From Deltaproteobacteria bacterium (GTDB lineage Bacteria; Desulfobacterota; Binatia; UBA12015): a stretch of 64,000 nt of DNA. Both the position numbers and the translations under genes were made by a program. The DNA is taken from NCBI GenBank assembly GCA_029262355.1, contig JAJCZO010000297.1, positions 21,055 through 85,054 on the forward strand, read 5' to 3'. Numbering within the stretch: position 1 is the stretch's first letter; the number at the start of each line of letters is the position of its first letter. Shown piece by piece: positions 6,567 through 56,748 of the stretch. The notes beneath the pieces are model-generated. The model ran no database searches. It had not been told where the DNA came from and saw nothing but the letters and a program-made list of their open reading frames with translations.

Positions 6567-6665
6567 TGCGTCTGCGGACCGTCAACCGACCGAAGGAGAT
6601 GTCAGGGGCGTTGATCCAGGCTGCGCAACGTTGACTCTCGCGGTTCGCGTGACATCGTTCGCGAG

Positions 6666-8189
6666 ATGAACGCCGCAAAGCAGCGATTTGTGTGCGGGCT
6701 GTTGGCTGTAGTTCTCGCGCTGCCGACCGCCGCAGAAACGGTGGATGGCGCCGAGTCCGAGGCGAGCCGGCCCAACATCTTGCTCATCACGATAGATACC
6801 CAGCGAGCGGATTCCTTCGGGATCTACGGGAATGAGGGCAACCACACGCCCAACATCGATCGTCTCGCCGCGGGCGGCGTCGTGTTCGAGCGGGCGACGG
6901 CTCCCGTCGGAACGACCTTTCCTTCCCACGCCACTCTGCTCACCGGTCTTTATCCTCGCGCGCACGGTGTGCGCTACAACGGCGATGCGCTCGAAGAGGA
7001 GATCGTCACCCTTGCAGAGAGGCTCCTTCCGGCCGGGTACGAGACGATGGCGTTCGTGACGTACGGCTCGATGGTGAGTCGGGGCGGTCTGGGCCAGGGT
7101 TTCATCCGGACGAGCCATGAGAAGGATGGGCCCGCGGCGCACTCGACCAGTCCGAAACGCATCACCTCCATGGCTCGGGGGCTTCTGAAGCGCAAGCGCC
7201 CGTCGCCGTTCTTCATGTGGGTTCACTATTACCATCCGCATTCGCCCTACGATCTGACGCCGTACTCGAAGGAGAAGTTGGAAGGATACGAAGGGGCGTT
7301 CGCGGACGGGGCGACGGTGAAGGAGTTTTACACTCTACAGAACAAGGGAAAGCTGACCGACGACGATCGGAAGGCACTGCGCACGCTCTATGATGGCGAG
7401 ACACGCGAGGCCGATCGTACGGTCGGCTCGATCCTCGAGGCGTTGGAGGAGGCTGGGCACGCGAAGAACACGATCGTCGTCGTCACCTCGGACCATGGCG
7501 AGTTGCTCGGCGAGCATGACGACGTCGGCCACGGCCCGCGCTTGTGGGACCCGGTGCTTCGCGTCCCGCTCGTGATCTACGATCCGCGCGCGCCGCAGCC
7601 GCGCAGAGTCGCGTCGCGCGTGGGTCTCGTCGACGTATCGCCGACCCTCTTGGAGATGGTTGGACTCGAGGTTCCAGCTGGGATCGATGGCCGAAGCCTC
7701 GCGCCCGCGTTGCGCGGCGACGACCTCGACGATCGGCCGTATTACAGCGAGGTCAGCGCGGTTTCCCCGAGTCACAAGGCGCGGAAGCCGGGCGAGAAGA
7801 AGGGCCAAGGGCCGGATCAGACGAGGGCGCAGAAGAAGGACCAAAAGCCGGGCCAGAAGAAGGCGCTGAAGAAGGGCCAGAAGAAGGCGGCCAAGGTGCC
7901 GCGCAAAGAGCCACGCACGCATGAGTGGGATGAGACCGCGGTTGCCGTTCTCCTCGGAGACCAGAAGCTGATCGTGCAGAACGGTCAGGCTCGGCGGTAC
8001 GATCTGGCCAAGGACCCGGCGGAGCTCACGCCGATCCCCGACACCGCCGACGATCCCAGCGCCGCAGAGTTGATGAAGCTCGCGCAAGAGTACGGCAAGC
8101 GGAAGCAGCGAACGGGAGGACAGGTCGACCCGAAGGACCTCTCGCCGAAGGTCGAGGCCGAACTCCGGTCGCTCGGGTATCTTCAGTAG
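6666..8189 (+). CDS. Secreted sulfatase-like alkaline-phosphatase-superfamily enzyme lacking the FGly motif (Thr in place of Cys; T-F-P-S-H)
   Basis: Has a signal peptide and a sulfatase N-terminal metal-binding block (NILLITIDTQRADSFGIYG). The active-site motif reads TTFPSHATLLTG instead of C-x-P-x-R. It has a Lys/Gln-rich low-complexity insert and ends LRSLGYLQ, like its paralogue at 37603..38994. Confidence 0.8.
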   Translation: MNAAKQRFVCGLLAVVLALPTAAETVDGAESEASRPNILLITIDTQRADSFGIYGNEGNHTPNIDRLAAGGVVFERATAPVGTTFPSHATLLTGLYPRAHGVRYNGDALEEEIVTLAERLLPAGYETMAFVTYGSMVSRGGLGQGFIRTSHEKDGPAAHSTSPKRITSMARGLLKRKRPSPFFMWVHYYHPHSPYDLTPYSKEKLEGYEGAFADGATVKEFYTLQNKGKLTDDDRKALRTLYDGETREADRTVGSILEALEEAGHAKNTIVVVTSDHGELLGEHDDVGHGPRLWDPVLRVPLVIYDPRAPQPRRVASRVGLVDVSPTLLEMVGLEVPAGIDGRSLAPALRGDDLDDRPYYSEVSAVSPSHKARKPGEKKGQGPDQTRAQKKDQKPGQKKALKKGQKKAAKVPRKEPRTHEWDETAVAVLLGDQKLIVQNGQARRYDLAKDPAELTPIPDTADDPSAAELMKLAQEYGKRKQRTGGQVDPKDLSPKVEAELRSLGYLQ

Positions 8190-8198
8190 GTCTTCTGG

Positions 8199-9572
8199 TT
8201 AGGCGGTTAGACGCCGCAGGGCCTGCCTGCACCGGTGGCGGAGCTTTCTCGCTGCGCCGCGTGCCTGCTCGGCCGCCTTTGTTCGGTTGAGCTTGTTCTC
8301 CCGCATCCACGGCCAAACCCGTCGTAGGTTAGAGGGTGAGACCAGCCACTCGGGCTTCAGCCAGATGCCCCAGCGGTAGAGCCACAGGAGGTCTCGCGTC
8401 AAGATCCAGGGCCAGTCGCGATCGTTGAGCACGAAGACTCGGGAAGAGATCGACATCGTCTCGAAACCGAACCGGGCGCTGAAGGCGAAGCGGAGTGCCT
8501 GTGAGCACACTTCGAGATGTGCGGGCATCGGATCGGGGCCCAACGATTCCAAGGACCCGTTGGGGATCGACATCTCGAGGGTGACGCCCAGGTCTGGCAC
8601 CCGGACATGCACGGGCTGGAGTACGTTGATTCTCTTGCGGGTGAACTTGTCGTGAATGTCGGCTGAAAAGCTCGCGAAGATCTCTTGTAGTTCCACGACG
8701 GGCACGATCGGTGGCTCGTCCATCGGCAGCTCGGGAATCTTCGGTTCGTCCGCCTTGAAGCGCTCGATGTTCGCAGTAGAGTCGAACGGAGCCTCGACGT
8801 CGTACTCGTCGCCCGGGTAGAGAAGCGCCGAGTCGCAGCCCTCGTCGAGCAGGCGTTGATGCGCAGTGACGGGTCGGTTCGCGTAGGCGTTCACGAACCA
8901 GTTGTCGCGATTGGAGAAGTACACGAAGCTTGCGAACGGGATCGTGACCCTGGATTCGAGCCACCGGTGAACGTCGACGATATGAAGGAGAATCGACTCC
9001 GCCATGTATCGCAGCTCGTAGTCGTAGTCCTTGCCTCCGGTGTATCCTGCGAGGGAGAACTGCTTGAGCGCCACATCGACGTGGCCGAGGTCACGGGTCA
9101 TCGTTCGGCAGTCGTCTTCGGCCATCTGTGCGTCGTTCACGTTGACGCAGACCGAGCCTTCGCTGGTGACGGCAAGACACGAGTCACCGTAAGGGGCGTG
9201 ATAGCAGTAGACACTCATCGATGGGCTGATCGCCACCTGCTGGCGATGGCGCAGCAAGCGAATCTTCTCGAACCCGAGGCGGCGAAGCGCTGTGCAAACT
9301 TCGTCGCTTCCTCGATCCTGGTACAGAACCGTGACACGCTTCCTCCAGCTCTCAGGAAGGGAAGCGAGGGTCGGGAAATGGAGATGATCTGGGTGCTCGT
9401 GTGAGATCCATAGAAAATCGATGTCGTCGAGCCACTCTTCGCTCCACACCGCTTTGGGAAACAGACTCCACGAGTCGTTGAAGGCCTTCCCGAAGAGCCA
9501 CGGATCACACAGGACTGCTGCATCAAGTCCCGTGGTGATGACGGACGCGTGGCTGACGAGGCGGATCTTCAT
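8199..9572 (-). CDS. MBL-fold metallo-hydrolase with an uncharacterised C-terminal domain
   Basis: Carries an HEHPDH (HxHxDH) metallo-beta-lactamase motif near the N-terminus. It is 457 aa and is the last gene of the minus-strand operon. Confidence 0.7.
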   Translation of the reverse strand: MKIRLVSHASVITTGLDAAVLCDPWLFGKAFNDSWSLFPKAVWSEEWLDDIDFLWISHEHPDHLHFPTLASLPESWRKRVTVLYQDRGSDEVCTALRRLGFEKIRLLRHRQQVAISPSMSVYCYHAPYGDSCLAVTSEGSVCVNVNDAQMAEDDCRTMTRDLGHVDVALKQFSLAGYTGGKDYDYELRYMAESILLHIVDVHRWLESRVTIPFASFVYFSNRDNWFVNAYANRPVTAHQRLLDEGCDSALLYPGDEYDVEAPFDSTANIERFKADEPKIPELPMDEPPIVPVVELQEIFASFSADIHDKFTRKRINVLQPVHVRVPDLGVTLEMSIPNGSLESLGPDPMPAHLEVCSQALRFAFSARFGFETMSISSRVFVLNDRDWPWILTRDLLWLYRWGIWLKPEWLVSPSNLRRVWPWMRENKLNRTKAAEQARGAARKLRHRCRQALRRLTA

Positions 9573-12633: not shown

Positions 12634-14340
12634 TCAGATGGTGGGGGTGACGGTGACTGGGCTCTCGGCCCAACCGTAGCGCACGGCCTTTGCCTCGACC
12701 GTCGTACCGATTCGGGTAGAGAATTTCTCGGAGTAGACCTGCCACGGGCCGGCGTTGCCCGTGCCGTCGATGAGGCGGTAGCCGATCGAAGCGCCCTCGG
12801 ATGGGGACGACATCTCGATCATCACGTGGCCGTCGGTGGTCGGGTTCACACGCACGACAGGGCGGGCAGTGCCGGGTTGCTCACCCCCGGGCCAGTACGT
12901 TGCGATCATCTCCTCTTCCGGCATGTCGCTGAGATCGGGGCGCTCGGCCATCCACGTGTCGAGGGCCGTCCACATGCGGTCGAGCGTGGCGCGGTGCTGG
13001 GGGTCCTCTGCCAGGTTCGCGACCTCGAACGGGTCCTCCCAGGTGTCGTAGAGCTGGTTGGCGGGGCGCGGCTCGAACCACAGCCGCTGAGTCGGATCGA
13101 GCTTGCCGTCCTCGAAAAGCCGTCGGAGTTCGCGCATCATGGGTTGGTTGTTGCGGTAGGCGAGGTCGAGCGCGGCCGGGGTGCCCGGCGTGCCGGTGCG
13201 GATGTACTTGTAACGTTCGTCGCGTACGGCGCGTTCTTGGTCGGGCCACTCGTCGATCCGATCGCGCGAGGCGTAGATGTATTGGCGGGGCGGATCAGCG
13301 CTCATCCCGGCGAAGACCCTACCGTCGCTCCAGGCGGGAGTCTCGACTCCCGCAAGCGCGAGGATCGTCGCCGAGAGGTCGACGAAGCTCACGAGCCGCT
13401 CATCGACCGAGCCCGGCTCTACTCCTGCGGGGCGGAAACGCTCGGGCCAGCGAATGATCATCGGCACTCTGATGCCCGAGTCGAAGAGAGACCGCTTCCC
13501 GCGGGGCAGTCCGTCGCCGTGGTCGGTCGTCCAGATGACGATGGTCGAGCCGGCGAGGCCGTCCCGCTCGAGGGCGTCGAGTGTCGCGCCGACCTCTTCG
13601 TCCATGACGTGGATGTTCTCGTAGTGGCGCGCCATGTCGGCCCGCACCGTCGGCGTGTCGGGGAAATACGGGGGAATCTCGATGTCGGCGGGATTCATCA
13701 CGGGCTCGCGGCCCAGAGCCGCCCATGCTCGGCCCAAGACCGAGACGGCGTGAGAGACGCTTCGGGGCCAGGTGAGCGGGAAGACGCCGCTCTCGTGCGT
13801 CACGTTGTAGTTGATCTGGCCGTAGAACGGCTTGTCCCGCGGTGTGCCCGTCCAGTCGGCGCCGGACCATGTCTCGCGATCCCAGATGGTGAACGGACCG
13901 CTGCCGGGGAAGACGTGGCTGAACTGGTAGTCCAGCTTCGCCGTCGTGAAGGTGAAGTACCCGGCCTTGCGCAGCAGCTCGGGGAACGCCTTCACCTCCG
14001 GGGGCGGAACGGCCCGAAAGCTCTGCAGCCCGTACGTCCGCATGTGCTGACCACCAATCGCGGTTTGTCGCACGCCGGTGATCAGCCCCGCTCGGCTGGG
14101 CGCGCAGACGCCGGCAGTCGTGAAGGTGTTTGGAAAGCGAACGCCCTCGGTCGCGAGCCGATCGAGGTTGGGCGTGATCGCAACCTCGTCGCCGAAAGCG
14201 CCGATACGCGCGCTCAGGTCCTCGGCGGTCAGCAGGAGGATGTTCGGCCGTTGTTGGGGAAGCCGCCCGCCCGAGGGCCCTTGCTGGCACGCCGACAACA
14301 GCAGGGCTGCGGCAAGGGCGGCACAGACTCTCGAGTGCAT
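12634..14340 (-). CDS. Sulfatase (formylglycine-dependent, C-A-P-S-R), lipoprotein
   Basis: Canonical motif TAGVCAPSRAGLITG with a lipobox signal peptide MHSRVCAALAAALLLSAC. The start is trimmed to ATG 14340. It carries a C-terminal beta-sandwich extension. Confidence 0.85.
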   Translation of the reverse strand: MHSRVCAALAAALLLSACQQGPSGGRLPQQRPNILLLTAEDLSARIGAFGDEVAITPNLDRLATEGVRFPNTFTTAGVCAPSRAGLITGVRQTAIGGQHMRTYGLQSFRAVPPPEVKAFPELLRKAGYFTFTTAKLDYQFSHVFPGSGPFTIWDRETWSGADWTGTPRDKPFYGQINYNVTHESGVFPLTWPRSVSHAVSVLGRAWAALGREPVMNPADIEIPPYFPDTPTVRADMARHYENIHVMDEEVGATLDALERDGLAGSTIVIWTTDHGDGLPRGKRSLFDSGIRVPMIIRWPERFRPAGVEPGSVDERLVSFVDLSATILALAGVETPAWSDGRVFAGMSADPPRQYIYASRDRIDEWPDQERAVRDERYKYIRTGTPGTPAALDLAYRNNQPMMRELRRLFEDGKLDPTQRLWFEPRPANQLYDTWEDPFEVANLAEDPQHRATLDRMWTALDTWMAERPDLSDMPEEEMIATYWPGGEQPGTARPVVRVNPTTDGHVMIEMSSPSEGASIGYRLIDGTGNAGPWQVYSEKFSTRIGTTVEAKAVRYGWAESPVTVTPTI

Positions 14341-14389
14341 TACGGGCCTATACCACCGTTTCGAACTCGACCGGCAAGCACTCGGGAGC

Positions 14390-15403
14390 TCAGAGATCGG
14401 GGTGTGCCGTCTTCCAACACGACGCGGGCAGAGTGGCGAGTCCACGGCGCAGCGCCTGGGTCAGGATCTCGTGGGCGCGCTCGCCGGCGTGCTTGTTGCC
14501 TTGGGACACCCAGAGCGATCGCGGGTCTTCGCCCAGGAACAGGTCGAGAGAGGGGGCCACTCCGAGTCCGCGCTCCTTGGCGGCACCGGCTACGCGCTCG
14601 TACACCTGGTCGTAGGGGTGGAAGTGATGGAGCGAATCTAGCTGGGTCTGCAGGAGTACGAGGACGCATGCGTCGTACTGACGGCCCAGCGTCGCAAGGC
14701 GGTCGAGGTGCCCCGTGTAGGCCTGCCACGCCGCCTCATTGTGGAAGTAGTTGTCGAACATCTCGGCTGGGTAGGTGCCGGGTGCCCGGCGAATCCACGG
14801 CAGCTCTTGTAGGCCCATCTGAACGGCCCGGCTCAAGGCGCTCGCCGAGTGAACCGGTTTGGGGCGCATCCCGCGAGATGCCGACGAGCGGTAGAGGTCA
14901 CGGAGGCGGATGTCGGTCGGGGCGAAGCCGTACACGATGAGATCGGGCTCGTAGGCCAGCCCCACGGTCTCCAACCGCTTCATCGAGTGCTCGATGTTTG
15001 CGCCGGCGATCGCGACGTTCACGACTTCGATGCGCGGGGCTCGCTCCTCGGAGAGCTCGTCCTCGATACGCGCCGCGTAGGTTCGCTCCTCGGCCACCCC
15101 CGAGCCCATCGCGTTCGAACCACCGGTGGCGACGATCCGGAACACGTCATCGGGCTTCGGGGTGTCGTACTCGCGGTCGCGAATGCCCTGTGAGTTGGTC
15201 TCGAAGAGCTGGCCCGCGAAGATCCCACGCTGATCCTTGCGAACCAGATCGGCGAGGCCCTTCAGCCGTCTCAGTTCTTTGGAATGCACTCGCGGCGTAG
15301 GAGAGGGCGGGGGCGGTGCCTCGAGCCAAAAGCGCAGCCCAATCTCAGCGGCGCCAGCGAGCAGTCCGAGAGTGATCGCAATCGTGAGGATAGGCCGAAG
15401 CAC
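14390..15403 (-). CDS. SGNH/GDSL-like hydrolase, N-terminally membrane-anchored (tentative)
   Basis: Has an N-terminal TM helix, then VATGGSNAMGSG (a GDS-like block I) and a C-terminal His-containing block. It is the first gene of the minus-strand operon. Confidence 0.5.
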   Translation of the reverse strand: MLRPILTIAITLGLLAGAAEIGLRFWLEAPPPPSPTPRVHSKELRRLKGLADLVRKDQRGIFAGQLFETNSQGIRDREYDTPKPDDVFRIVATGGSNAMGSGVAEERTYAARIEDELSEERAPRIEVVNVAIAGANIEHSMKRLETVGLAYEPDLIVYGFAPTDIRLRDLYRSSASRGMRPKPVHSASALSRAVQMGLQELPWIRRAPGTYPAEMFDNYFHNEAAWQAYTGHLDRLATLGRQYDACVLVLLQTQLDSLHHFHPYDQVYERVAGAAKERGLGVAPSLDLFLGEDPRSLWVSQGNKHAGERAHEILTQALRRGLATLPASCWKTAHPDL

Positions 15404-15609
15404 CGCGCTCAGGGTGGCAGAGGGCGGGGAAGGTGTCGAAAGGTGGTTGCCGCCCTGCCTCTGGGCGGGTCCGAGGCATTCGGGGCTCGGGCCGACCCCG
15501 GCGGGTCGATGTCGGGGGGCATGGCTGGTCTCGTATCTCGGGCCTCCGGCGGCCCGCCGAAGGCCGTTGGCTGATCTCGCCCGCCGGTCTATATTCCTTG
15601 GGTAGACTG

Positions 15610-16017
15610 ATGCTCCGTCGAATCCTCAGTACCGTTCTCCTGTTGCTGCTGTGTCTGCCGGCCACCTCGCTGGCGGTGCTGTACACCTGCGCGATGGACG
15701 GTCTGACCCGGATGTCGAACTGCGATGAGCACGCCGAGCACCGCGCGCGCGTCCAGCGATCCGTGGCTCGGCCGGTCGCCCAGGCGGGCGGGCATGGTTG
15801 CGCCGCAGTCCCCGAGACGTGCTGCGAGAGCCGCGTCGTCACGGCGTCACTCGAGACCGCTCCGAGCAACGAGATTCCGACGCCGTCGGCCGCAGTCGGG
15901 TACGTGGCGTCGGTCGCAGATGCTGGCTTCGCCTCGGGCGGGGTTGGCAGCAGCCTCGACGCTCCGCGGTGGCGAGGTCCACCGTTGTACGCACGCTTCG
16001 CGTCCTACCTCATCTGA
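15610..16017 (+). CDS. Small secreted Cys/His-rich hypothetical protein (possible periplasmic metal-binding protein)
   Basis: Signal peptide MLRRILSTVLLLLLCLPATSLA, then CAMDGLTRMSNCDEHAEH and HGCAAVPETCCES. It lies 120 bp upstream of, and co-oriented with, the cusCBA-like genes. Confidence 0.45.
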   Translation: MLRRILSTVLLLLLCLPATSLAVLYTCAMDGLTRMSNCDEHAEHRARVQRSVARPVAQAGGHGCAAVPETCCESRVVTASLETAPSNEIPTPSAAVGYVASVADAGFASGGVGSSLDAPRWRGPPLYARFASYLI

Positions 16018-23652: not shown

Positions 23653-23983
23653 TGCGTGGCTCTTTCCGTTGAGGGGGGCAGAGTTCGTTCTGTCCCTGTC
23701 CTAACAGAAAGCAGGGGGCGGTCTTCCGTCCCTCACCCGCGCAGGAAGGATTCGCCCTCCTCCGTTTCGCACGGGCCGAAATAGGACCTTCCGAGCGCTG
23801 ATCATGAGGTCTGCAATGGCAACAAGGTGATGCCGGAGGCAACCCGATAGGTTCAGGAGCGCTCCGCGCTCTGTACAAAACGCACTGAAAATGGACGGTT
23901 CTCTTTGGTACGGGCCTTGCGGCTCCAGATTTCGAGAGAGCGCCGCCGGAATCTCACGGTGGCCCGAGACGGGGAGCACAGGC

Positions 23984-33239: not shown

Positions 33240-35318
33240 TCAGTGGACGCCGGCGCGAGCGCGCCGCATCGCGAGGAGAAGCGCGATCACCGCCCACATC
33301 AGGGCGAGGGCGGTTCCTTCTCGGAGCCCGCGGGCGCGGTACTCGATCTCGACCAGGTGTTCGCCTGCGGGCACCGCGACCGCAAAGAACGGGCCCCCCG
33401 CGCGATGGATCTGCGCGGCGACGTCGTCCACGGCCGCGCTCCAGCCCGGTGTCCAGGATTCGCGCACGAGCAGGAGTGCCTCGTGGTCGGTGGACACACG
33501 TAGCCGAGCTCGGCCGGGCGACTCCTCCAGGATGCGGGCCTCGCCGGCAGCCCCGGGGGGCCCTGCGGACGGCCCCGCGTCGAGCACGACTCCGACGGGA
33601 AGAGTCGCGTCGGCACGCATGCGCTCGACCATTTCTCCCACGGAGCCGAGCGGGGCCGCCTCGGCCAGCACTTCGTATCGAAGGGGCGGGGGGGTTCGTT
33701 CCAACAGACAGAGTGTTGGCCGCGTCTCTACGATCTGCCAATCCGGTGCGGCTGCAAAGTGGTCGCACGTGTTCGTCGAGGCGAGTACGAACCGCGCTCC
33801 GGCGCGGTCGAGTAGGCCCGGTCGCCCGGCGTTGCGAAGGGCGGGCCCGTGGGTCCGCCCGAGAAGCTGCGCCGGACCTCCTCGAAGTGAGTCCACGCCA
33901 AAGACGACGTTCATGTTGCCGAAGATGAGTTCGGGGTGCGCCGCGAAGAGCGTACGGCTGAACCGCTCGGAGCTCGCCCGCTCGACAAGGCCGCTGTCTT
34001 CGATCGAGCGAAGCATCTCACCTTGCCGTGGGAGAAGGTCCGCGCGAAACCTGGCGTAGTGGCGAAGCCGCTGCGCGGTGTACGCTCCGCGTTCGACCAG
34101 GGCCCCGGCGATGAGGACGAGTGCAGCTGCAGCGACCAGGTCCCGACGCCGCGTGGCGAGGACCGGGCGCAAGAGCACGTCCGCGCCCAGGGCAGCGAGG
34201 AGCGCTACGGAGACTTCCGTGAGTTGCCAAAACTTCAGCGGTCCCCGGAAGATCGCGAACGGCGGTAGCGCGTGGAGTGCGGGGTACAGTGGCGTGCCGG
34301 GCCCCAGCGAGAGGACGTAGCCGATCGCTGCGACGGAGGCGATGAACCACGCGAGCCTGCCGCGCCGAGCTACGGCGACGAGTGACAAAAGGAGGCTCGC
34401 ATAGCCTAGGAAGGTGGCGAACTGCGCGGTCACACTCGTGCCGGCCGGCGGGTGCAACGGAGCCGTCCACGGAAGGGAGAGCGCGTGGCTCAACCACGGG
34501 TTCGGCCCCTCGCCCCGCATCGATTGCGAGAGCACGGCGGCGGTGGTCAGCAGTTGTGGCGCCGCGAGCGCCAGTCCGCCGAATCCCAGTGAAATGGCAC
34601 GGCCGAGTCGCGAGCCGAGCGTTCGCTCGTCACCGAGGACGAGGATCCACAGCCCCGCAACGATTCCCGAGTAGAGAGCGAACTCGGGGTATCCGGCCAT
34701 CACCTGTCCGGCCATCGCCAGCCAGCCGAGCCACGCGAAGCCGCCGACGGGACTCGTTTCGGGTCTGCGCAACATCTCGGCGGCGGCAAAGAGCCACGGC
34801 CAGTACGCGAGCGCCGAGTATTGCGGGATCAAGTGCGTCGCCCATTGGTGGGAGAACGGAGCGAGTAGGAGCAGGGCCCCACCGAATGCCGCGGCTACAC
34901 GGCTCACCTGGAGTAGACGAAGGAGAAACACGGTGCCCGCCACGAATAGGCCGCAGTGCAGCCCGGTCGATACGTCGAACGCGAACAGGTGCGGCGCCGC
35001 GGTGAGTGCGAACGCCAGCATGTGCGGCACGTACAACGGGCCACCGATCGGGTCGGCGAGAAGCGGGTAGCCCGACCAGAGTCGCGTCGACCATTCGGGG
35101 ATTCGCGACTCACTCCAGCCTCGGTACGCTTCGAAGGCGATCGGGAATTGGATGAGCTGGTTGTCGCCGCCGAGGGCCCATGGCTCGCCCATGGCTTGTG
35201 CGTAGGACCAGAAGAACGCCAGGGCCACGAGACTCGCGGCGCTACCTGCGATCGCAGCGTCGACCAGCGCTTCGCGTGGCCCCGCGTCGCGCGGTGATGC
35301 GTTATTCGTGCTGCTCAT
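33240..35318 (-). CDS. Large polytopic membrane protein with C-terminal soluble domain (YfhO/GT-C-like candidate)
   Basis: 692 aa from ATG 35318 (MSSTNNASPRDAG), with more than 10 predicted TM helices and a ~200-aa C-terminal domain. It is paralogous in architecture to the divergent neighbour. The ORF-track extension to 35756 is R-rich. Confidence 0.6.
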   Translation of the reverse strand: MSSTNNASPRDAGPREALVDAAIAGSAASLVALAFFWSYAQAMGEPWALGGDNQLIQFPIAFEAYRGWSESRIPEWSTRLWSGYPLLADPIGGPLYVPHMLAFALTAAPHLFAFDVSTGLHCGLFVAGTVFLLRLLQVSRVAAAFGGALLLLAPFSHQWATHLIPQYSALAYWPWLFAAAEMLRRPETSPVGGFAWLGWLAMAGQVMAGYPEFALYSGIVAGLWILVLGDERTLGSRLGRAISLGFGGLALAAPQLLTTAAVLSQSMRGEGPNPWLSHALSLPWTAPLHPPAGTSVTAQFATFLGYASLLLSLVAVARRGRLAWFIASVAAIGYVLSLGPGTPLYPALHALPPFAIFRGPLKFWQLTEVSVALLAALGADVLLRPVLATRRRDLVAAAALVLIAGALVERGAYTAQRLRHYARFRADLLPRQGEMLRSIEDSGLVERASSERFSRTLFAAHPELIFGNMNVVFGVDSLRGGPAQLLGRTHGPALRNAGRPGLLDRAGARFVLASTNTCDHFAAAPDWQIVETRPTLCLLERTPPPLRYEVLAEAAPLGSVGEMVERMRADATLPVGVVLDAGPSAGPPGAAGEARILEESPGRARLRVSTDHEALLLVRESWTPGWSAAVDDVAAQIHRAGGPFFAVAVPAGEHLVEIEYRARGLREGTALALMWAVIALLLAMRRARAGVH

Positions 35319-35569
35319 CGCGGCGTGCCCGAACGCGCCCAGCCGAAACGGGCGCTTCTTGGGTAGCAGGGTGCGCCCCTCACGGGAAGCAAGTGGCAGG
35401 AGCCTCCGCCGTCCATTGCGTACCGAGCAGCGGCGCACTAGAAGCTGCATATTCCGTCTCCGGGTTGGAACTCGCTGCGTCGCCGGCTGGGATGTCGCGC
35501 GGGGTTCGTCTCCGGCGGTCTCGTCGTCATGCGGATTCTTTTCGAGCTCGTGTCCCCGGGTGGGGTGGG

Positions 35570-37615
35570 ATGAGTCGAAAGTCGCATCCCGGGGCCGCGA
35601 TCGGCTCGGCGGCGGTCTATCTGCTGCTCGCGCTGTGGCAGATGCGACACGTGCTCCGCGCGCCGACGATCCATGCGCCGTTCTCGAGCGCCTTCTACGA
35701 CATCGGGGCGCGATTCGGGTTTCACGATCTACAGATGGTCGTGAGTCAGATCGCATACAACGCGCGGACTCTCGCGTCCGCGCCCCAAGACGTCTTCACG
35801 GGCCCCCAATGTTACCCGATGGAGAGCGCTTCGACCTTTGGCGAGCACATGCTGGGCGAGGGTGTTTTCGGAGTGGTCCCCTACCTGCTCACCGGAGATC
35901 CGCTCGCGACGATGGCGGCAGTGGTCACGATCAAGCCGCTGATTGCCGCGTTGGCGGCCTTCGCGCTCGTGCTGCGCTGGACGGGTCATTCCGGAGCGGC
36001 GTTCGTCGCCGGACTGTTGTTCGGGTTTCATCCGCTTCGACTCATCGACCCGGCGCACCCCTACCTCTCGGGCAACGAATGGACGATGCTCGCTCTCCTC
36101 GCGCTCGACGGAATCGTCGCGGGGGGAGGGTGGGCTTGGGTCGCCTTGCTGGTGCTCGCGGGTTGGTTCCAGATTCTGGAGAGCTTCTATCCGCTCCTCG
36201 GCTTCACGTTCGTCCTCGGGGTGTATGGCGCATGGCTCGTGGTGGCTCGACCACGCGCGCTCGTCGCCGTGCTTCCCAAGCTCGTCGTCGTGGGCGCTGC
36301 GATGGTCATCGGTGCGTACGTGATTCTCGGCCCCTACCTCGCGACACGCGACGTGTGGCCCGTACTCGGCGACCGTTCGATCTTCGTCCTTTATCCACTG
36401 ACGAGGTACTTCCTGGGCAGCCACCTGTTTCTCGGCGTCACGTTCTGGGTTCTCGCGCTCGCGGGTGGCATCGACTTGATTCGCGGCGCTCGCCGCACCT
36501 GGCCGCACGACCCGCGTTGGCCGCTCCTCGTGGGTGGGCTACTCGTGCTCTGGTTCGGAGTCGAGCAAGAGTTGGCGCTCGTGGGATGGAAGGTGCCCGC
36601 GCTGTATCACTTCCTTCGGTGGGTGCCGGGTGTCGACGCCGTGCGCTCGCCTGCCGTGGTCACGTACGCGGGGCTCGTCCCCGCGGCGCTCTTCGCCGGC
36701 TACGGCGTTACCGTGATTCTGCGCGATCGGTCTCGCGCCGCGGCGCGTTGGATCACCGGGGCACTCGCCGCGTTGTGGATCCTCGAAGTGTTCCTCCCCA
36801 GTGCCTCCACCCGAATCTTCGGCCATCGCTTCGAGGCCTCGGCGGTCCCGCTGAGGCCGTCGGACGATCTCCTTGCGCTGCACGAGCAGCTTCCGCCCGG
36901 ACCGGTGCTGAATCTTCCGTGGGCGCGCGGAAAGTCTGGCGAGTACTTGCTGCTCAGCGCCTACCATCATCGCCGCATCGGAGCGTGCTACAATTCGTTC
37001 GAGGCGCCGATCGCGGCGCGGCTCCGGGTGCTCGCGGAAGCGGTGCCTGACCCGGAGGCGATTCAGGCACTCGCCGCGCTGGGGTTCGACTCGATCGTGG
37101 TGCACGACGACGTCTATGCGCGCCCCGAGATCCGTAGCCGCCTCGATGCGGTCGTGGATGCGGTGAGCGGTAGTGAGGCGAGCCCGGTACGCCTCGCCCC
37201 GATCGGAGAGACCGACGGGCATCGTGCCTATGCGTTGCACGGCAGCGAGCCTCCAGCCGCAGACGTGGAGGCACTGGTTCGGACGCCAGCGGAGCTGCTC
37301 GAAGTCGTCGGGCCGGGAGCGGTCCGTCTGAGCTTTGGGCTCGTGAATCCGGGCCCCCGAGTCTATCGCCATCCGCAGCCGATCGAACCGAGTGCGCTCG
37401 TGGTGCGCTGGCAGGGTCCATCGGGCGCGGTCGTTCGCGAGGAGGAGGTTCGTGTGCTGCTTCCGATCGTGCTCGTCGCGGGGGAAGCTGGGGCCGTCGA
37501 AGTCGAGGTCGTGCTACCGCCGGCCGGTACGTACGAGGTGTCTTTGCTTCGGTCCGGCTCGAAGCCCGGAGTGCTGGCGCACCGAACCGTGCGCGTCGGG
37601 CCTCACTCGACGTAG
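35570..37615 (+). CDS. Large polytopic membrane protein with C-terminal soluble domain (paralogue of 33240..35318)
   Basis: 681 aa from ATG 35570 (MSRKSHPGAAIGSAAVYLLLALW), with multiple TM helices and a C-terminal ~250-aa domain. It is divergently transcribed from its paralogue. Confidence 0.6.
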   Translation: MSRKSHPGAAIGSAAVYLLLALWQMRHVLRAPTIHAPFSSAFYDIGARFGFHDLQMVVSQIAYNARTLASAPQDVFTGPQCYPMESASTFGEHMLGEGVFGVVPYLLTGDPLATMAAVVTIKPLIAALAAFALVLRWTGHSGAAFVAGLLFGFHPLRLIDPAHPYLSGNEWTMLALLALDGIVAGGGWAWVALLVLAGWFQILESFYPLLGFTFVLGVYGAWLVVARPRALVAVLPKLVVVGAAMVIGAYVILGPYLATRDVWPVLGDRSIFVLYPLTRYFLGSHLFLGVTFWVLALAGGIDLIRGARRTWPHDPRWPLLVGGLLVLWFGVEQELALVGWKVPALYHFLRWVPGVDAVRSPAVVTYAGLVPAALFAGYGVTVILRDRSRAAARWITGALAALWILEVFLPSASTRIFGHRFEASAVPLRPSDDLLALHEQLPPGPVLNLPWARGKSGEYLLLSAYHHRRIGACYNSFEAPIAARLRVLAEAVPDPEAIQALAALGFDSIVVHDDVYARPEIRSRLDAVVDAVSGSEASPVRLAPIGETDGHRAYALHGSEPPAADVEALVRTPAELLEVVGPGAVRLSFGLVNPGPRVYRHPQPIEPSALVVRWQGPSGAVVREEEVRVLLPIVLVAGEAGAVEVEVVLPPAGTYEVSLLRSGSKPGVLAHRTVRVGPHST

Positions 37616-38994
37616 CCCAGCGCGCGTAGCGCTTCGGTCTGGCGCGCGTCCCGGGAGGGTGCCACCTTGGGGCCGGCGAGCTGGACGCCCTTTGCGTACT
37701 CCTTGGGAATGCCTCCCGGGTCTGGATCGGTGCGCGCCGAATGTTCGAGCGCGTCCGCTGCGGGATGTGCTCGCCACCGATTGGTGCGCCACTCTTCCGC
37801 CGCTGCGCCGAGCTCGAGGTAGGTACGGTCGATGATCTCTCGATCGCCGTCGACGCGAATGAACCATTTCTGATTGCCGACGACAAACGCGCGCACCTGT
37901 GATCGATTCGCGAACGCCTCGAGCACGATCGGGACGTTCGGTGGTCGCGTTCCGAACACGAATCCATCACTTCGCTCGAAGCCACTGACTCCGATGTACG
38001 CGAGAAGCGACGGTGCGAGATCGACTCCCGAGACCGGCGCCTGGATTCGTCGCCCCCGTCCCCCCGGCCGACGGACCAGGAGGGGGACCCGCACGAGGGG
38101 CTCCCAGACGTGGTAGCCGTGCGAGAAGTAGGTTTCGTGCTCGACCATGGTCTCACCGTGATCTGCCGTGAGTGCGACGATCGTGTCGCCGGGCGAGCGC
38201 TGTACCTCGGACAAGAGACGACCGACTTCCTGGTCGAGGTATGAAATCTCCTCGTCGTATCGGTCGATGTACTCCAGCGCGTCCTGCGGGTTCTCGGCGA
38301 GTTGAATGTAGGCGGGAATCTTCCGGCGTGGCACGATCTGCTCGCCCTCGTGCGCGAAGTCGGCGGGTGTTTCGGCCGGCGGATCGTAGGGCCCGTGCGG
38401 ATCGTTGTAGTGCACCCAGAGAAAGTAGGGGGCGGCCACGTTTCGGGCTTGGCTCAGCCATCCGATCGCGGCGTCGGTCGTTGGACCGGCTCGGCGTTCC
38501 CATACGGGTCGGATGCCCTCGCGTTCCGTCACGGTGTCGTCGTAGTGGTCGAAGCGTCGGTCGAGCCCGATCGACTCACTCGCGAGAACGGAGTTCGAGA
38601 CCACCGCGGCGGTTTGGTATCCGGCGGCGGCGAGTACGTCGGCCAGGGTGGTGACGTCGTCGTCGATGCGCTGCAGAAAGAGTCGGATGCCATGGCCCGG
38701 TGGGTAGAGGCCCGTCAATAGAGACACGACGCTCGGGGGGGTGTTGGTTTCGGCCGAGTAGGCTCGTTCGTAAATCTCCCCGTCTGCGAAGAACGCATCA
38801 ATCTGAGGAGACGTCGGTCGGTCGTAGCCGTAGATGGACAAGTGGTCGTAGCGCAGTGTGTCGACGCTGATCAGGACGAGGTTCGGCGCTGTTCCGTAGT
38901 GCCGGCTCTCCTGCGTCGGCGGTTGGGAGATGCTCCAACCGATTGCCGCCACGACGATGAGGATCGCCAGGGCACGGAGGCCGGGGCTCCTCAT
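37603..38994 (-). CDS. Secreted sulfatase-like enzyme lacking the FGly motif (T-P-P-S-V), paralogue of 6666..8189
   Basis: Signal peptide and N-terminal block NLVLISVDTLRYDHLSIYG. The active-site position reads NTPPSVVSLLTGLYPPGHG. It ends LRALGYVE, and its start overlaps the stop of the upstream canonical sulfatase. Confidence 0.8.
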   Translation of the reverse strand: MRSPGLRALAILIVVAAIGWSISQPPTQESRHYGTAPNLVLISVDTLRYDHLSIYGYDRPTSPQIDAFFADGEIYERAYSAETNTPPSVVSLLTGLYPPGHGIRLFLQRIDDDVTTLADVLAAAGYQTAAVVSNSVLASESIGLDRRFDHYDDTVTEREGIRPVWERRAGPTTDAAIGWLSQARNVAAPYFLWVHYNDPHGPYDPPAETPADFAHEGEQIVPRRKIPAYIQLAENPQDALEYIDRYDEEISYLDQEVGRLLSEVQRSPGDTIVALTADHGETMVEHETYFSHGYHVWEPLVRVPLLVRRPGGRGRRIQAPVSGVDLAPSLLAYIGVSGFERSDGFVFGTRPPNVPIVLEAFANRSQVRAFVVGNQKWFIRVDGDREIIDRTYLELGAAAEEWRTNRWRAHPAADALEHSARTDPDPGGIPKEYAKGVQLAGPKVAPSRDARQTEALRALGYVE

Positions 38995-40838
38995 GGCCGC
39001 GGCCGGTTGCGCGGTGTCGCGTGGTCCAGAACGAGGGCGTCGAGTCGGGTGCCCATCTGTGCTTTCGTCGCACCGTGCGCCTCGTCGGCCGCCAGGTTCT
39101 CCATCTCGAAGGGGTCAGCCTCGAGGTCGTACAGTTCTTCGGTAACGCCTGCGTCGGTGTCGGTGCGAATGTACTTCCAGTTGCGGGTTCGCAGGGTGAG
39201 ACTGGGCTTCGCGAATAGTCCACCCGGCGTTTCGACCAGCACCTCCTCGCGGCCGAGAGCTTCTCCGGCGAACGTGGGTACCAGACTTCGTCCAGGGCCC
39301 GTCGGGGTGCGGTCCAGTGTAGCGAGGTCTCCGAAGGTCTCAGCGAGGTCGACGTTTAGAGCGAGGTCGTCGTTCGATCGCGGTGCTCCGACGAGTCGTG
39401 GATACCGAATGACGAGTGGCACCCGGATCGCTTCGTCGTATCCGGCGAACTTCGACGAAAGTCCGTGTTCCCCCCAGAAGTGACCGTTGTCGGAGGTGAA
39501 GACGAAGACCGTTTCGTCGGTCAGGCCGAGCCGTTCGAGGCGATCGGAGAGCCCGCCGACGGCATCATCCACCGCCAGCAGTGAGCGGAGTTGTGCGAGT
39601 CGTAGATCGTCGACGCGCTTCACCCCCTTGGGATTCACGATGCTCCGAAGGAAGCGGACCCACGTGGGCTTGTCGCTCACGTCTTCCTCGTTCCAACTCG
39701 GGGGGCGCCAGGGGTCCACGTCGGAGAGGCTCCGCGCGTGGCGCTTCGCGGGAATTGCCGGCTGATGCGGAGCGGTCGCGCCGAGCCAGAGCAGGAAGGG
39801 CTCGCCGGCGCTGGCGTCGAGGAAGGCGAGTGCTTTCTCACGGAGGCGGTCGGTGACCTCGTCGAACTCGGTCGCCGGCAGGGTTTCTGCACCACCCCCG
39901 TCACGAAACCGCAGGCTGGGGAAGACTCCCTCCGGTCCAGGCATCGCCTTTTGCAACGCGTACCACTCGTCCCACCCTCCGGGGACGGCGTCGCCAAGGT
40001 CGGCGAGGTAGATGCCGAACAACCCGGTGCGATATCCGGCGGCGTGCAGCCGCGGCGCGATGCTCGTCGCCTCGGCGAATGATCCCGCAGCTTCGGCGTT
40101 GTTCGACACCCCATTGTTCGATGCGTATTCGCCCGAGAGGAATGCGGCGCGGCTGGGCGCGCAGATTGGCGTATTCACGAACGCGTTGCGGTAGCGGATG
40201 CCGCGAGCAGCGAGGTCGTTCGTGACGCGAGGCATGTGCGCGAGCGTGTCCCATCGCTGGTCGTCGGTCATGACGACGACGAAGTTCGGCGAGATGGGTG
40301 TTGGCGCAAGGCGGTTCGCGATCTCGGACGCGGCGCCCCGCACGCATCGTGCCGCCGCCCGTGCATCGAACGGGTCGCCCGCCTCGCCGCCGATGTGAGC
40401 GCAGGGGGCGCCGAGTGTGGGCACGACGGTGGACTCGGGCGGCGCGGGTGCCCTGGGGCGCACACGTAGCCCCCGACAGGCCTCGACGATGGGGTCCATC
40501 GCGCGCGCGTGGCGTGTGGCGCGCTGCCCGCGGCTGATCTCGACCAAGCGCGCGGCGAGGAACTGGGTTGCGGCATCGCGGATGGAGTCTCGGCATCGAC
40601 GCTCGGCCGCGGAGAGATCGTCGTCTTGGCAGCTTGGAGCGACGAGCTCCGCCGTGGCTGCGATCAGTGGCGGAGCACAGGCGGGCTTCGTTGGTGGCTC
40701 GGCGGAGCAGCGTGGCATCGACACGAGGAGCGCGGCGGCGGCCTTCGGCACATCCGCCGCGGTGCATCGAACGGACGAAGCGGGCCAAGCTTCGGCGCTC
40801 CAAAGAACGCTGGCGAGCACCAGCACTGTCCACAACAT
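38991..40838 (-). CDS. Sulfatase (formylglycine-dependent, C-A-P-S-R) with ~150-aa Cys-containing N-terminal extension
   Basis: Canonical motif NTPICAPSRAAFLSGEY with a signal peptide from ATG 40838 (MLWTVLVLASVLWSAEA). The ORF-track extension to 41510 is Arg-rich antisense of the ferredoxin and sucD genes. Confidence 0.8.
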   Translation of the reverse strand: MLWTVLVLASVLWSAEAWPASSVRCTAADVPKAAAALLVSMPRCSAEPPTKPACAPPLIAATAELVAPSCQDDDLSAAERRCRDSIRDAATQFLAARLVEISRGQRATRHARAMDPIVEACRGLRVRPRAPAPPESTVVPTLGAPCAHIGGEAGDPFDARAAARCVRGAASEIANRLAPTPISPNFVVVMTDDQRWDTLAHMPRVTNDLAARGIRYRNAFVNTPICAPSRAAFLSGEYASNNGVSNNAEAAGSFAEATSIAPRLHAAGYRTGLFGIYLADLGDAVPGGWDEWYALQKAMPGPEGVFPSLRFRDGGGAETLPATEFDEVTDRLREKALAFLDASAGEPFLLWLGATAPHQPAIPAKRHARSLSDVDPWRPPSWNEEDVSDKPTWVRFLRSIVNPKGVKRVDDLRLAQLRSLLAVDDAVGGLSDRLERLGLTDETVFVFTSDNGHFWGEHGLSSKFAGYDEAIRVPLVIRYPRLVGAPRSNDDLALNVDLAETFGDLATLDRTPTGPGRSLVPTFAGEALGREEVLVETPGGLFAKPSLTLRTRNWKYIRTDTDAGVTEELYDLEADPFEMENLAADEAHGATKAQMGTRLDALVLDHATPRNRPRP

Positions 40839-40914
40839 TGGTCGAGCGTGCCCGAAACCTGCGAACGGTGCACGCCGCTTCCGCAGGCAGGGGCGCAACG
40901 ATCGTCTCCGCGCC

Positions 40915-41139
40915 TTACGATTCGTACAGCTTGATGACCCGGACCTTGCCGTCGGGCGCGGCCTGAATGCAGAGGTCGCAGAGCACACACTCGTCGAGGT
41001 TCTTGTCGACGATCTGCAGTGCGCCGTCTTCCGACTGCGCGAAAATGTCGACGGCGCACACGTCGACCAGCTTCTTGGAGAGATCGCGGTCCTGAGCGAC
41101 CGCGTCATCCACTTGGACGTCGATGAACATTCCGGCCAT
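40915..41139 (-). CDS. Small ferredoxin-like protein (Cys4: C-x32-C-x2-C-x2-C), tentative
   Basis: 74-aa ORF immediately downstream of sucD with a 1-nt gap. It has a CVLCDLC cluster plus an upstream Cys and protein-like composition. Confidence 0.4.
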   Translation of the reverse strand: MAGMFIDVQVDDAVAQDRDLSKKLVDVCAVDIFAQSEDGALQIVDKNLDECVLCDLCIQAAPDGKVRVIKLYES

Positions 41140-41140
41140 G

Positions 41141-42052
41141 TCAGTTCCCCTTTTCCTCGAGCCGCTTCTTCAAGAGGGCCGGGATCTCTTCGATTCGTTC
41201 GGCCACGGAGATTCCCGCGGCTTCCATGCGGTCGATCTTCTCGGCCGTGGTGTCTTCCTTGCCTTCGACGATCGTCCCGGCGTGGCCGAAGCGCATGCCC
41301 TTCATCTCGTCCATGAATCGCCCGGCCATGAAGGCGACGATTGGCAGGCGAGAATTGTGCTCCTTCACCCACTCGGCGAGCTCCGCTTCCATGCGGCCGC
41401 CCGGCTCCGAGTAGATCGCGATCGCCTTGGTCTCGGGGTCGGCCTCGAACAGAGGCATGAGCTCGGCGTACGACGTGCCGACGATGGCGTCGCCGCCGAT
41501 CGAAACGCACGTCGACTGGCCCATGCCGGCGGCCGTCAACGTCGAGGCGATCTCGGTTGTCATGCCGCCGGAGCGGGACATGATGCCGATCGGCCCCTTG
41601 GTGTAGGCCTGTCGGGTGTTGGCTGCCGGGCCGCCGACGCCACCCATCTTGGCTTCGTCCGGCGAGATGATGCCGAGGCAGTTCGGTCCGATGATGCGAG
41701 CCCCGCGCAGATTTGCGAGCTCGACCGCCTGGGCGACTTCGCCGCGGGGGATGTTCTCGGTCACGACGACGATCAGCTTGATGTCGTTCTCGAGCGCCTC
41801 GATCATCGCGTCGACCGTGAACTTGGGCGGCACGGAGATGACGCTGCCCTCGGGCTGGCCCACCTTCTCGACGACGTCACGGACGCAGTCGAAGACCGGT
41901 ACGCCGTAGATGTCGCGCCCCGCGCGACCAGGTGTGACGCCCCCGATGATCTTGGCGCCGTAGTCGAGGTTCTCACGGGTGAGGTTGACGGCCTCGCGGC
42001 CGGTGATGCCCTGCACGATGAAGGGGGTGTCTTTTCGAATCAGGATCGACAT
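41141..42052 (-). CDS. sucD: Succinate--CoA ligase alpha subunit homologue (could be malate thiokinase alpha)
   Basis: MSILIRKDTPFIVQGITGREA N-terminus, CoA-binding Rossmann fold, and the phosphohistidine loop SRSGGMTTE. Confidence 0.9.
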   Translation of the reverse strand: MSILIRKDTPFIVQGITGREAVNLTRENLDYGAKIIGGVTPGRAGRDIYGVPVFDCVRDVVEKVGQPEGSVISVPPKFTVDAMIEALENDIKLIVVVTENIPRGEVAQAVELANLRGARIIGPNCLGIISPDEAKMGGVGGPAANTRQAYTKGPIGIMSRSGGMTTEIASTLTAAGMGQSTCVSIGGDAIVGTSYAELMPLFEADPETKAIAIYSEPGGRMEAELAEWVKEHNSRLPIVAFMAGRFMDEMKGMRFGHAGTIVEGKEDTTAEKIDRMEAAGISVAERIEEIPALLKKRLEEKGN

Positions 42053-56691: not shown

Positions 56692-56748
56692 TCTAGCGCA
56701 CCGCCGTTAGCCCTATGTCGATGGCGGTCTCACTCGTCGAGGGGGACG

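Follow-up and report, generated by a model that had tools for sequence, protein, structure and literature searches.

Within the alkaline-phosphatase superfamily, a threonine nucleophile on a zinc or manganese site is the hallmark of phosphoryl transfer, as in the nucleotide pyrophosphatases/phosphodiesterases (NPP), PafA, EptA and LtaS. Phosphonate monoester hydrolases (PMH) hydrolyse phosphonate monoesters and phosphodiesters, and the switch between a formylglycine, mono-metal centre and a threonine, bimetallo centre is a much studied question in this superfamily. All (type I) sulfatases reportedly share the formylglycine nucleophile, and their sulfo-enzyme is resolved by hemiacetal cleavage, a step that is impossible for threonine (PMC3693508). 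According to SulfAtlas, threonine cannot yield formylglycine, and PMHs are listed there as phosphodiester/phosphonate hydrolases (PMC5066984). Here, a 64,000-nt stretch from a Deltaproteobacteria bacterium of the Binatia (contig JAJCZO010000297.1, positions 21,055 to 85,054; hereafter the window) was analysed, and in particular the open reading frame (ORF) at 6666..8189 on the forward strand, which encodes a 507-residue sulfatase-fold protein of a T-x-P-S-H subclade with a putative threonine nucleophile. We consider it probable (roughly 60%) that this protein is an exported metallo-phosphodiesterase of the alkaline-phosphatase superfamily that acts through phospho-Thr84 on a two-subdomain PMH/sulfatase scaffold.

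The coding sequence was assigned from the ORF list, Pfam, an AlphaFold2 (AF2) model and Foldseek. Its ATG is the first in-frame start possible after the stop codon at 6612-6614. The G+C content at third codon positions (GC3), on which the gene calls across the window were based, is 0.80, as usual for real genes in this window of 65% G+C. The Pfam Sulfatase model (PF00884) was matched by residues 36-333 over profile positions 1-300 of 301 (E 1.3e-46), and a weaker match to SGSH_C (E 9e-8) covers the C-terminal subdomain. The NPP model Phosphodiest (PF01663) also scored above its cut-off (E 4.6e-18, 66 bits vs 23), the match being limited to two stretches of which the best spans residues 39-105. 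No NCBIfam model reached its cut-off with the 507-residue protein; the best, the arylsulfatase model PRK13759, gave 170 bits vs 481, and the Ept, MCR and CptA models all remained far under their cut-offs.

Four blocks on the forward strand hold the candidate active site. The N-terminal metal block PNILLITIDTQRAD (6771..6812) carries D44 (6795-6797), the first metal ligand by the alignments. The nucleophile block GTT84FPSH88ATLLTGLYPRAHGVRYN105 (6909..6980) follows, with T84 at 6915-6917, H88 at 6927-6929 and N105 at 6978-6980. The codons at 6909-6947 were read directly from the DNA as GGA ACG ACC TTT CCT TCC CAC GCC ACT CTG CTC ACC GGT, translating to G-T-T84-F-P-S-H88-A-T-L-L-T-G with ACC as the T84 codon. 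The block H187-Y-Y-H-P-H192-S-P-Y (7224..7250) contains H192 (7239-7241), a proposed second-site ligand, and the block D276-H277-G-E-L-L-G-E-H-D-D-V-G-H289-G (7491..7535) supplies the remaining metal-site residues.

These residues were placed by alignment to three kinds of characterised enzymes. In HMMER alignments with the PMH/arylsulfatase (AS) chains 4uph and 4upi, T84 fell on the formylglycine position, P86 on the Pro and H88 on the Arg; the formylglycine position is printed as Ala in these chains and was taken by us as the modified residue. In 4uph, N105 aligned with an Asn, H192 with the His of RPHPP, and H289 with a Lys (SDHAEMMGDHWMLGKG vs SDHGELLGEHDDVGHG), the active-site residue that binds the ester oxygen (PAS K375, PMH K337). 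The site departs from that of PMH at four positions, where Thr84 replaces formylglycine, His88 an Arg, His289 a Lys and Thr45 a Gln.

Alignment by hhalign to the catalytic domain of human ENPP1 (sequence 100% identical to PDB 6wet) gave a probability of 97.5% (E 8e-12) over query residues 36-288. The nucleophile T256 fell on T84 (TFPSH vs TFPNH) and the Asn of the HGIIDN stretch on N105, and the Zn ligands D218, D376 and D423/H424 fell on D44, H192 and D276/H277. From T83 to N105, 12 of the 23 residues are identical to ENPP1 and likewise 12 of the 23 to PMH 4uph, and the catalytic positions of this block (Thr, Phe and the His at +4) agree with NPP.

The third comparison, by hhalign with the C-terminal domain of E. 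coli EptA (sequence from NC_000913), reached 97.0% with a score of 83 and 25% identity across 268 columns. In this alignment the EptA nucleophile, the second Thr of CGTATA, matches T84, and the Zn-site partners are the Glu of GETSRAE (for D44), the His of GSHGP (for H192), SDH (for D276/H277) and the His of YLHG (for H289). The motif D-H-G-E-x-L-G-E-x-x-x-x-x-H-G and its spacing are identical in the 507-residue protein and in EptA SDHGESLGENGIYLHG. The EptA partners of H192 and H289 were presumed, by motif identity, to be equivalent to H395 and H478 of MCR-1. The MCR-1 sites are composed of E246, T285, D465 and H466 (Zn1) and of H395 and H478 (Zn2) (PMC5175174). All six EptA/MCR-1 Zn-site positions are filled in the window protein, by D44, T84, H192, D276, H277 and H289. 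T83 was considered as the nucleophile instead of T84 and rejected, distant relatives having L, W or I at that position (PLTLPSH, PWTLPSH); T83 reaches 90% only in the closer homologue set A2.

An AF2 model, built on a 60-sequence alignment, had a pLDDT of 88.5 and a pTM of 0.86, with low confidence only at the signal region, a Lys-rich loop (~366-420) and the linker preceding the last helix. Among the top 50 Foldseek matches listed from the PDB, every one was an S1 sulfatase or a PMH; the top matches included the PMHs 4uph, 2vqr, 2w8s and 4upk, with TM-scores of ~0.6-0.65 and E 6e-28. In the predicted secondary structure, D44 lies at the end of strand 37-43, T84 starts helix 84-93, and D276/H277 follow strand 269-275. 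As modelled, this placement of first metal ligand, nucleophile and D-H pair is canonical for the superfamily.

Export of the protein, to the periplasm or the medium, is predicted from an N-terminal signal and from the lipobox-like Cys of its homologues. The putative Sec signal peptide comprises residues 1-23 (6666..6734 on the forward strand; MNAAKQRFVCGLLAVVLALPTAA|E) and, as read by eye from the sequence, consists of a basic n-region, a 13-residue hydrophobic core and T-A-A at -3 to -1. The AF2 model has a helix at 2-17 in this region, followed by a low-confidence linker. Many homologues carry a lipobox Cys at the same position (consensus AxC). Residues 8-20 form the sole N-terminal hydrophobic stretch; the catalytic domain starts at residue 36, and a multi-pass membrane domain is absent.

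Conservation was assessed in two sets of 120 homologues each, the best matches to the main protein (H-set) and those to its paralogue in the window (V-set), aligned to a family hidden Markov model (HMM). A simple T-x-P-x-H pattern was found in 97 of the 120 H-set proteins. At the nucleophile column 87 H-set sequences were aligned, 80 of them with Thr and the other 7 with Ser, and 78/87 retain His88. The V-set has Thr in all 119 aligned sequences, V, I, M or L at the Arg position in 115/120, and F or L at position 105 in 116/120. For both sets pooled, D276, H277 and G278 are present in 240/240, H289 in 238/240, H192 in 207/207 aligned and T84 in 199/206 (Ser in 7), and D44, R47 and D49 are invariant in every aligned homologue. 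This conservation across the homologue sets rules out that the Thr arose by chance, from a sequencing error or as a recent variant.

An earlier note on this DNA, made from the sequence alone, had described an intact sulfatase layout and N-terminal metal block. This is borne out by the PF00884 match and by the presence of D44 and D276-H277. Its reading of T-F-P-S-H at the C/S-x-P-x-R position, with no Cys or Ser available and Arg replaced by His, agrees with the DNA and with the 4uph/4upi alignment. The motif does lie at the nucleophile position: Thr84 falls on the formylglycine of PMH/AS and on the nucleophile Thr in both ENPP1 and EptA, and it starts helix 84-93 in the model. The homologue alignment that it asked for showed Thr and His to be clade-wide and not a lineage variant. 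Its preference for a phosphoester hydrolase or transferase over a sulfatase is favoured by Thr84, His289 and N105, to the extent that function can be read from these residues.

A formylglycine sulfatase was ruled out because position 84 offers no Cys or Ser for conversion. Attack of T84 on a phosphodiester-like substrate is favoured instead, because a Thr/metal site marks phosphoryl transfer and the nearest relatives, the PMHs, are phosphorus hydrolases. Phosphate-ester chemistry is further favoured because His289 gives the EptA/MCR-1 spacing and Asn105 matches the Asn of NPP and PMH. In the mechanism that we propose, the T84 hydroxyl would be activated by a divalent transition metal bound to D44, D276 and H277, with Zn2+ and Mn2+ as the likeliest candidates. 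From the N-terminus of helix 84-93, T84 would attack the phosphorus of a phosphate diester (or phosphonate monoester), giving a covalent phospho-Thr84 intermediate that would subsequently be hydrolysed by water. H192 and H289 may form a second metal site or a leaving-group site, and the non-bridging oxygens would be bound by N105, H88 and the backbone amide of T84. We infer, and did not observe, the identity and number of metals, phosphorus over sulfur chemistry, the preference for diesters, and hydrolysis over transfer.

Several points weigh against the proposed phosphodiesterase. The number and identity of the metals are guesses, and the geometry of the active site was deduced from alignments (sequence and profile) together with the predicted secondary structure. 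The D-x-x-x-H and distal-His site of NPP is not recognisable, with no equivalents of ENPP1 H380 and H535 within the hhalign span 36-288, and position 190 is His in the closest relatives only, being Glu or Asp in others. No neighbouring genes are conserved between ORF 6666..8189 and its orthologue loci L002-L005, so that context gives no substrate clue, and the link to TonB-dependent receptors described below comes from relatives fused to tetratricopeptide repeats (TPR) with 30-40% identity, not from the window locus. Literature searches that covered full text and motif strings turned up neither a paper dealing with this clade or its motifs nor any enzymology or structure; the PDB likewise holds no solved structure of the clade. 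Finally, EptA, LtaS and OpgB carry the same residue set, yet they are transferases.

This last point leads to the first alternative, in which, as with EptA/MCR-1, LtaS, OpgB or BcsG, an acceptor in the envelope (glycan, lipid or protein) would receive the group on phospho-Thr84 (phosphoethanolamine, phosphoglycerol or similar). We regard such a phospho-headgroup transferase as unlikely, although each of the six EptA/MCR-1 Zn-site positions is filled and the DHGExLGExxxxxHG spacing is identical, and although the surroundings of the sister subclade (YfhO-like ORFs in the window and an STT3/AglB-like cluster in locus L087) suggest glycoconjugate editing, at least there. To our knowledge, every characterised lipid-donor transferase of the superfamily has a membrane domain, and the 507-residue protein has only a cleavable-looking signal in place of a multi-pass one. 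That domain is not strictly needed, given that OpgB also works as a transferase when soluble in the periplasm. Nevertheless, sequence and fold are much nearer to the hydrolytic PMH/AS enzymes (220-224 bits) than to EptA (hhalign score 83), and no envelope-biosynthesis genes lie beside ORF 6666..8189.

A phosphate-monoesterase for phosphate scavenging, that is, a functional alkaline phosphatase resembling PafA, which is an NPP-type Thr enzyme, was judged slightly less likely again. The Thr nucleophile, the NPP-like T-F-P-S-H...N105 block and predicted export would suit it, and a polar, possibly cationic H88 beside the nucleophile could bind a dianionic monoester. The linkage of relatives with TonB-dependent receptors and NPP-family genes also fits nutrient acquisition. 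However, no Arg or Lys equivalent to R166 of alkaline phosphatase or to K162/R164 of PafA was identified by inspection, and no Pho-regulon genes were found near ORF 6666..8189 or its orthologues L002-L005. The nearest characterised relatives, PMH, NPP and EptA, all favour diester-like substrates as far as we know.

It is very improbable that the protein is an inactive binding pseudo-enzyme of sulfatase origin. The formylglycine Cys, the motif Arg and the active-site Lys have indeed been lost, and relatives are often fused to TPR domains; against this, Thr, His and His are near-invariant down to ~30% identity and the metal ligands are 100% conserved, which is the signature of a working site. 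Least credible of all is a protein that is still a sulfatase, with Thr or another route replacing formylglycine, for despite the sulfatase fold with SGSH_C, the pairing of the paralogue with a canonical sulfatase and the low promiscuous sulfatase activity of superfamily enzymes (PMC3693508), formylglycine is common to all type I sulfatases and needed for hemiacetal release of sulfate (PMC5066984, PMC3693508), and the sulfate-binding Arg and Lys are both substituted.

The paralogue is encoded at 37603..38994 on the reverse strand (463 residues) and belongs to a T-x-P-S-V sister subclade. It is 33% identical to the main protein (E 1e-43), matches Pfam Sulfatase at 1.6e-46 and scored 375 bits with the family HMM, vs 143-148 for the window's two Cys-type sulfatases. 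The paralogue has the motif N-T85-P-P-S-V89 and the stretch DHGETMVEHETYFSHG, and Phe replaces Asn105. The claim that it carries the same substitution therefore stood for the Thr (T85), not for the Arg position, which holds Val89 and not His. The two window proteins stand for two sister subclades, set apart by a coupled exchange of polar for hydrophobic residues beside the nucleophile: His88 with Asn105 (polar, NPP/PMH-like) in one and Val/Ile88 with Phe/Leu105 (hydrophobic) in the other, the metal ligands and Thr being unchanged. This exchange suggests different substrate classes for the two subclades.

Directly upstream of the paralogue lies a gene for a canonical Cys-type sulfatase (38991..41510, reverse strand; C-A-P-S-R and SDNG), recognised from its ORF, motif and Pfam Sulfatase plus SGSH_C matches; its true start is probably near 40838. 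The stop codon of this gene overlaps the start of the paralogue (ATGA; gccATGAgg), an arrangement that suggests translational coupling. The same pair of a Cys-type and a Thr-type gene with overlapping ends was found in locus L086, which holds a 74%-identity orthologue, and a true sulfatase and its Thr-type partner may work on one substrate. In L086, a GDSL lipase gene was also seen next to the orthologue of the paralogue. In L087, a 56%-identical relative follows an STT3/AglB-like gene of the glycosyltransferase C (GT-C) type, in a cluster with glycosyltransferase family 2 (GT2) and methyltransferase genes.

In the window, YfhO-like membrane ORFs adjoin the paralogue. They lie at 33240-35795 (reverse) and 35156-37615 (forward), each of ~800 residues with coding-like GC3, and overlap on opposite strands over ~640 nt. 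One of the pair gave a weak match to YfhO (a GT-C membrane protein); the other is without a Pfam match and resembles a multi-pass membrane protein.

The extent of the clade was estimated from larger libraries. A phmmer search against 1.84 billion representatives at 50% identity returned 23,945 proteins at E<=1e-30. Among the domains aligned from the best 150 of these, Thr was present in 154/157 and His289 in 153/156. With the same query the best formylglycine enzyme of the PDB gave 121 bits, corresponding to ~E 1e-29 in the large library. Because such an enzyme would thus fall just outside the threshold, the set at E<=1e-30 is probably mostly Thr-type, the residue check covering its best 150. 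Scanning one genome per GTDB species identified at least 417 relatives, nearly all from metagenome-assembled genomes; among the matches listed were Acidobacteriota, Planctomycetota, Myxococcota, Wenzhouxiangellaceae, Thermoanaerobaculia, Nitrospinota, Chloroflexia, Gemmatimonadota and Calditrichaceae. The closest named homologues, at 63% identity, are from Candidatus Binatia. The family profile scored above 370 bits inside the clade vs 220-224 on the dimeric AS/PMH group (4upi 224, 4uph 220).

For the whole group the name T-x-P-S-[HV]/L-R-A-L-G-Y superclade is used here, defined by a signal or lipobox, D44, T84-x-P-[SA], H192, D276-H277-G-E-x-x-x-E-x-x-x-x-x-H289-G and the ending L-x-x-L-G-Y. 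The 507-residue protein has all of these features, which are near-invariant in the 240 homologues and in 135 further 50%-identity representatives, and which are kept in 105 of 113 hits from 80 GTDB loci plus the window. Very long members of 900-1550 residues were also encountered (P0247, P0257, P0278, P0285, P0359 and others), in which the query matched in 3-5 stretches, suggesting fused double catalytic domains or large extra domains.

We tentatively propose, at somewhat less than even odds, that these proteins form a distinct and very large family of the alkaline-phosphatase superfamily, in which an NPP-type Thr motif and an EptA-type His/His pair are bridged to a sulfatase/PMH scaffold, and that they are active on exported phosphodiesters or glycan phosphates while hidden under sulfatase names in Acidobacteriota, Planctomycetota, Myxococcota, Binatia and others. 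Naming as arylsulfatase by automated pipelines had been expected, and the names that NCBI and JGI give to homologues are indeed 'sulfatase', 'arylsulfatase A-like enzyme' or 'choline-sulfatase'; these names are a mis-annotation only if the phosphorus chemistry proposed above is right. In that case, counts of sulfatases in these phyla would be inflated and an abundant class of enzymes for organophosphorus cycling or envelope editing would have gone unrecognised. Claims of sulfatase-rich genomes in Planctomycetota, Acidobacteriota and Myxococcota may then partly count enzymes that are unable to form formylglycine. In Acidobacteriota the clade may operate together with TonB-dependent receptors, and an exported phosphodiesterase class with such a link in soil Acidobacteriota, if real, would bear on organic-phosphorus turnover. 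The clade would also be a natural experiment on the switch from a formylglycine, mono-metal to a Thr, bimetallo centre, since it has a PMH/sulfatase scaffold with Thr, His and His at the positions of nucleophile, motif Arg and ester-binding Lys. The principle will not surprise specialists; what is notable is the size of the clade and the hybrid active site.

The C-terminal tail PKVEAELRSLGYLQ (8145..8186, forward strand) carries the family signature L-R-[AS]-L-G-Y, as defined from the homologue alignments. In the paralogue the motif reads LRALGYVE, at 37606-37629 on the reverse strand. The LR(S/A)LGY ending that had been pointed out in both ORFs is thus present, and it is family-wide: G504 and Y505 are invariant in the homologue alignments, and the G-Y of the motif was found in 237 of the 240 homologues. 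Within the window it occurs on the two Thr-type ORFs only, not on the two Cys-type sulfatases. The longer form L-[RK]-[AS]-L-G-Y-[VIL]-[EQ] closes the catalytic domain, being terminal in single-domain members and located at the TPR junction in fusions. A terminal sorting signal was considered unlikely, since the motif is internal in the TPR fusions. Members of the AS/PMH/choline-sulfatase subgroup oligomerise through their C-terminal tails (PMC5870055), and by analogy the L-x-x-L-G-Y segment may be an oligomerisation helix.

Within the C-terminal subdomain, a loop at ~366-420 (7761..7925, forward strand) contains a Lys/Gln-rich low-complexity insertion of ~45 residues (…KKGQGPDQTRAQKKDQKPGQKKALKKGQKKAAK…). 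None of the 24 closest homologues (24/24, alignment A2) has it, and its pLDDT is 54-70. Its source is an in-frame tandem repeat at 7790-7889 with a period of 12/36 nt.

ORF 6666..8189 is preceded at 100 nt by a zinc-type dehydrogenase gene and is convergent with a gene for a metallo-beta-lactamase (MBL)-fold protein; further genes nearby encode acyl-CoA metabolism, a pyridoxal-phosphate (PLP) decarboxylase, an FGGY kinase and a resistance-nodulation-division (RND) efflux system. The promoter and terminator scan around the ORF gave nothing beyond background, and no formylglycine-generating enzyme was seen among the annotated ORFs of the window. The second Cys-type sulfatase, at 12634-14460 on the reverse strand, is canonical and lipoprotein-like (LSAC, C-A-P-S-R); the adjoining ORF at 14390-15625 (reverse) is without a Pfam match and SGNH/GDSL-like by eye. 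Three other ORFs with coding-like GC3 were noted: 8199-9572 (reverse, 457 residues), with only a weak N-terminal MBL-fold match; 54736-56706 (reverse, 656 residues), with no Pfam match; and 23831-26764 (forward, 977 residues), with only a galactose-binding-like domain associated with type IX secretion.

ORFs were clustered from 80 GTDB loci, whose relatives have 30-40% identity and for the most part carry a TPR fusion. Tandem arrays of two to five copies were found in 30/76 loci, and NPP-family (PF01663) genes in 7 loci. A gene resembling a TonB-dependent receptor (CarboxypepD_reg, Plug and barrel) was present in 18/80 loci, often directly upstream and on the same strand. Arrays of TPR-fused T-x-P-S-H genes downstream of such genes occur in Acidobacteriota and relatives (L014, L036, L038, L043, L046, L053, L081 and others). 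These loci resemble nutrient-utilisation loci and lend weak support to a role of those members as extracellular hydrolases in nutrient acquisition; for the window protein this is no more than a hint.

Two automated matches were set aside. The Enterococcus Mn-arylsulfatase (NCBIfam Mn_arylsulf match) was rejected, as it uses C61/formylglycine, and the NCBIfam 'PhoY alkaline phosphatase' model matched the N-terminal block only (33 bits vs a cut-off of 1000) and was not traced in the literature. A 2025 PNAS sequence similarity network paper on alkaline phosphatases is confined to PhoA. With the S1 sulfatases the protein shares the fold, the domain order, the position of the signature helix (x-x-P-x-x-x-x-L-T-G), the metal-binding Asp and PF00884. 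It differs from them at the Cys/Ser (Thr84), the fifth-position Arg (His88; Val89 in the paralogue) and the active-site Lys (His289). Sulfatase status is denied by SulfAtlas to Thr-bearing PF00884 members (PMC5066984). Thr-type non-sulfatases within PF00884 were therefore already known in general, but that remark concerns LtaS-like proteins with the T-x-N-x-E motif described there (TXNXE), not this clade. LtaS has five transmembrane helices and a T-x-N-x-E nucleophile motif; the window protein has T-F-P-S-H and no transmembrane domain.

EptA, MCR-1 and LptA, beside which LtaS, OpgB and BcsG stand as more distant members, share the Thr nucleophile and the filled Zn-site positions, with D44 standing for Glu. 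Unlike them, the window protein has no N-terminal membrane domain (~five helices, binding lipid donor and acceptor) and no conserved disulfides, and its helix past the nucleophile retains the sulfatase/NPP form P-x-x-x-x-x-L-T-G, unlike that of EptA. The resemblance to NPP (PF01663; ENPP1 6wet, Xanthomonas 2gsn) is closest around the nucleophile, where T-F-P-S-H-x-x-x-x-T-G-L-Y-P-x-x-H-G-x-x-x-N matches at the catalytic positions; the T-F-P-N-H-type nucleophile with an Asn ~20 residues on has its counterpart in T84-F-P-S-H...N105. However, only the N-terminal and D-H blocks align, D376-x-x-x-H380 and His535 are not recognisable (H192 lying at D376), the 507-residue protein has an SGSH_C subdomain that NPP lacks, and overall similarity is far below that to PMH/AS.

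The AS/PMH subgroup (4uph, 4upi, 4upl, 4upk, 2vqr, 2w8s) gave the best matches in both sequence (phmmer 6e-34) and structure. Common to both are the two-subdomain fold, D...D-H ligands of the transition-metal type and not the Ca-type D-N, N105, H192 in xPHxP, the spacing from D-H to the residue 12 positions on, and a C-terminal tail after the fold. Differences are Thr in place of the Cys-derived formylglycine, His88 in place of Arg, His289 in place of Lys, Thr45 in place of Gln (4uph/4upi), and the clade's own L-R-A-L-G-Y end motif. Judged by these residues, the 507-residue protein is not a member of the AS/PMH subgroup; its residue set, as aligned, is that of a putative NPP/EptA-type Thr/His centre mounted on a PMH-type scaffold.

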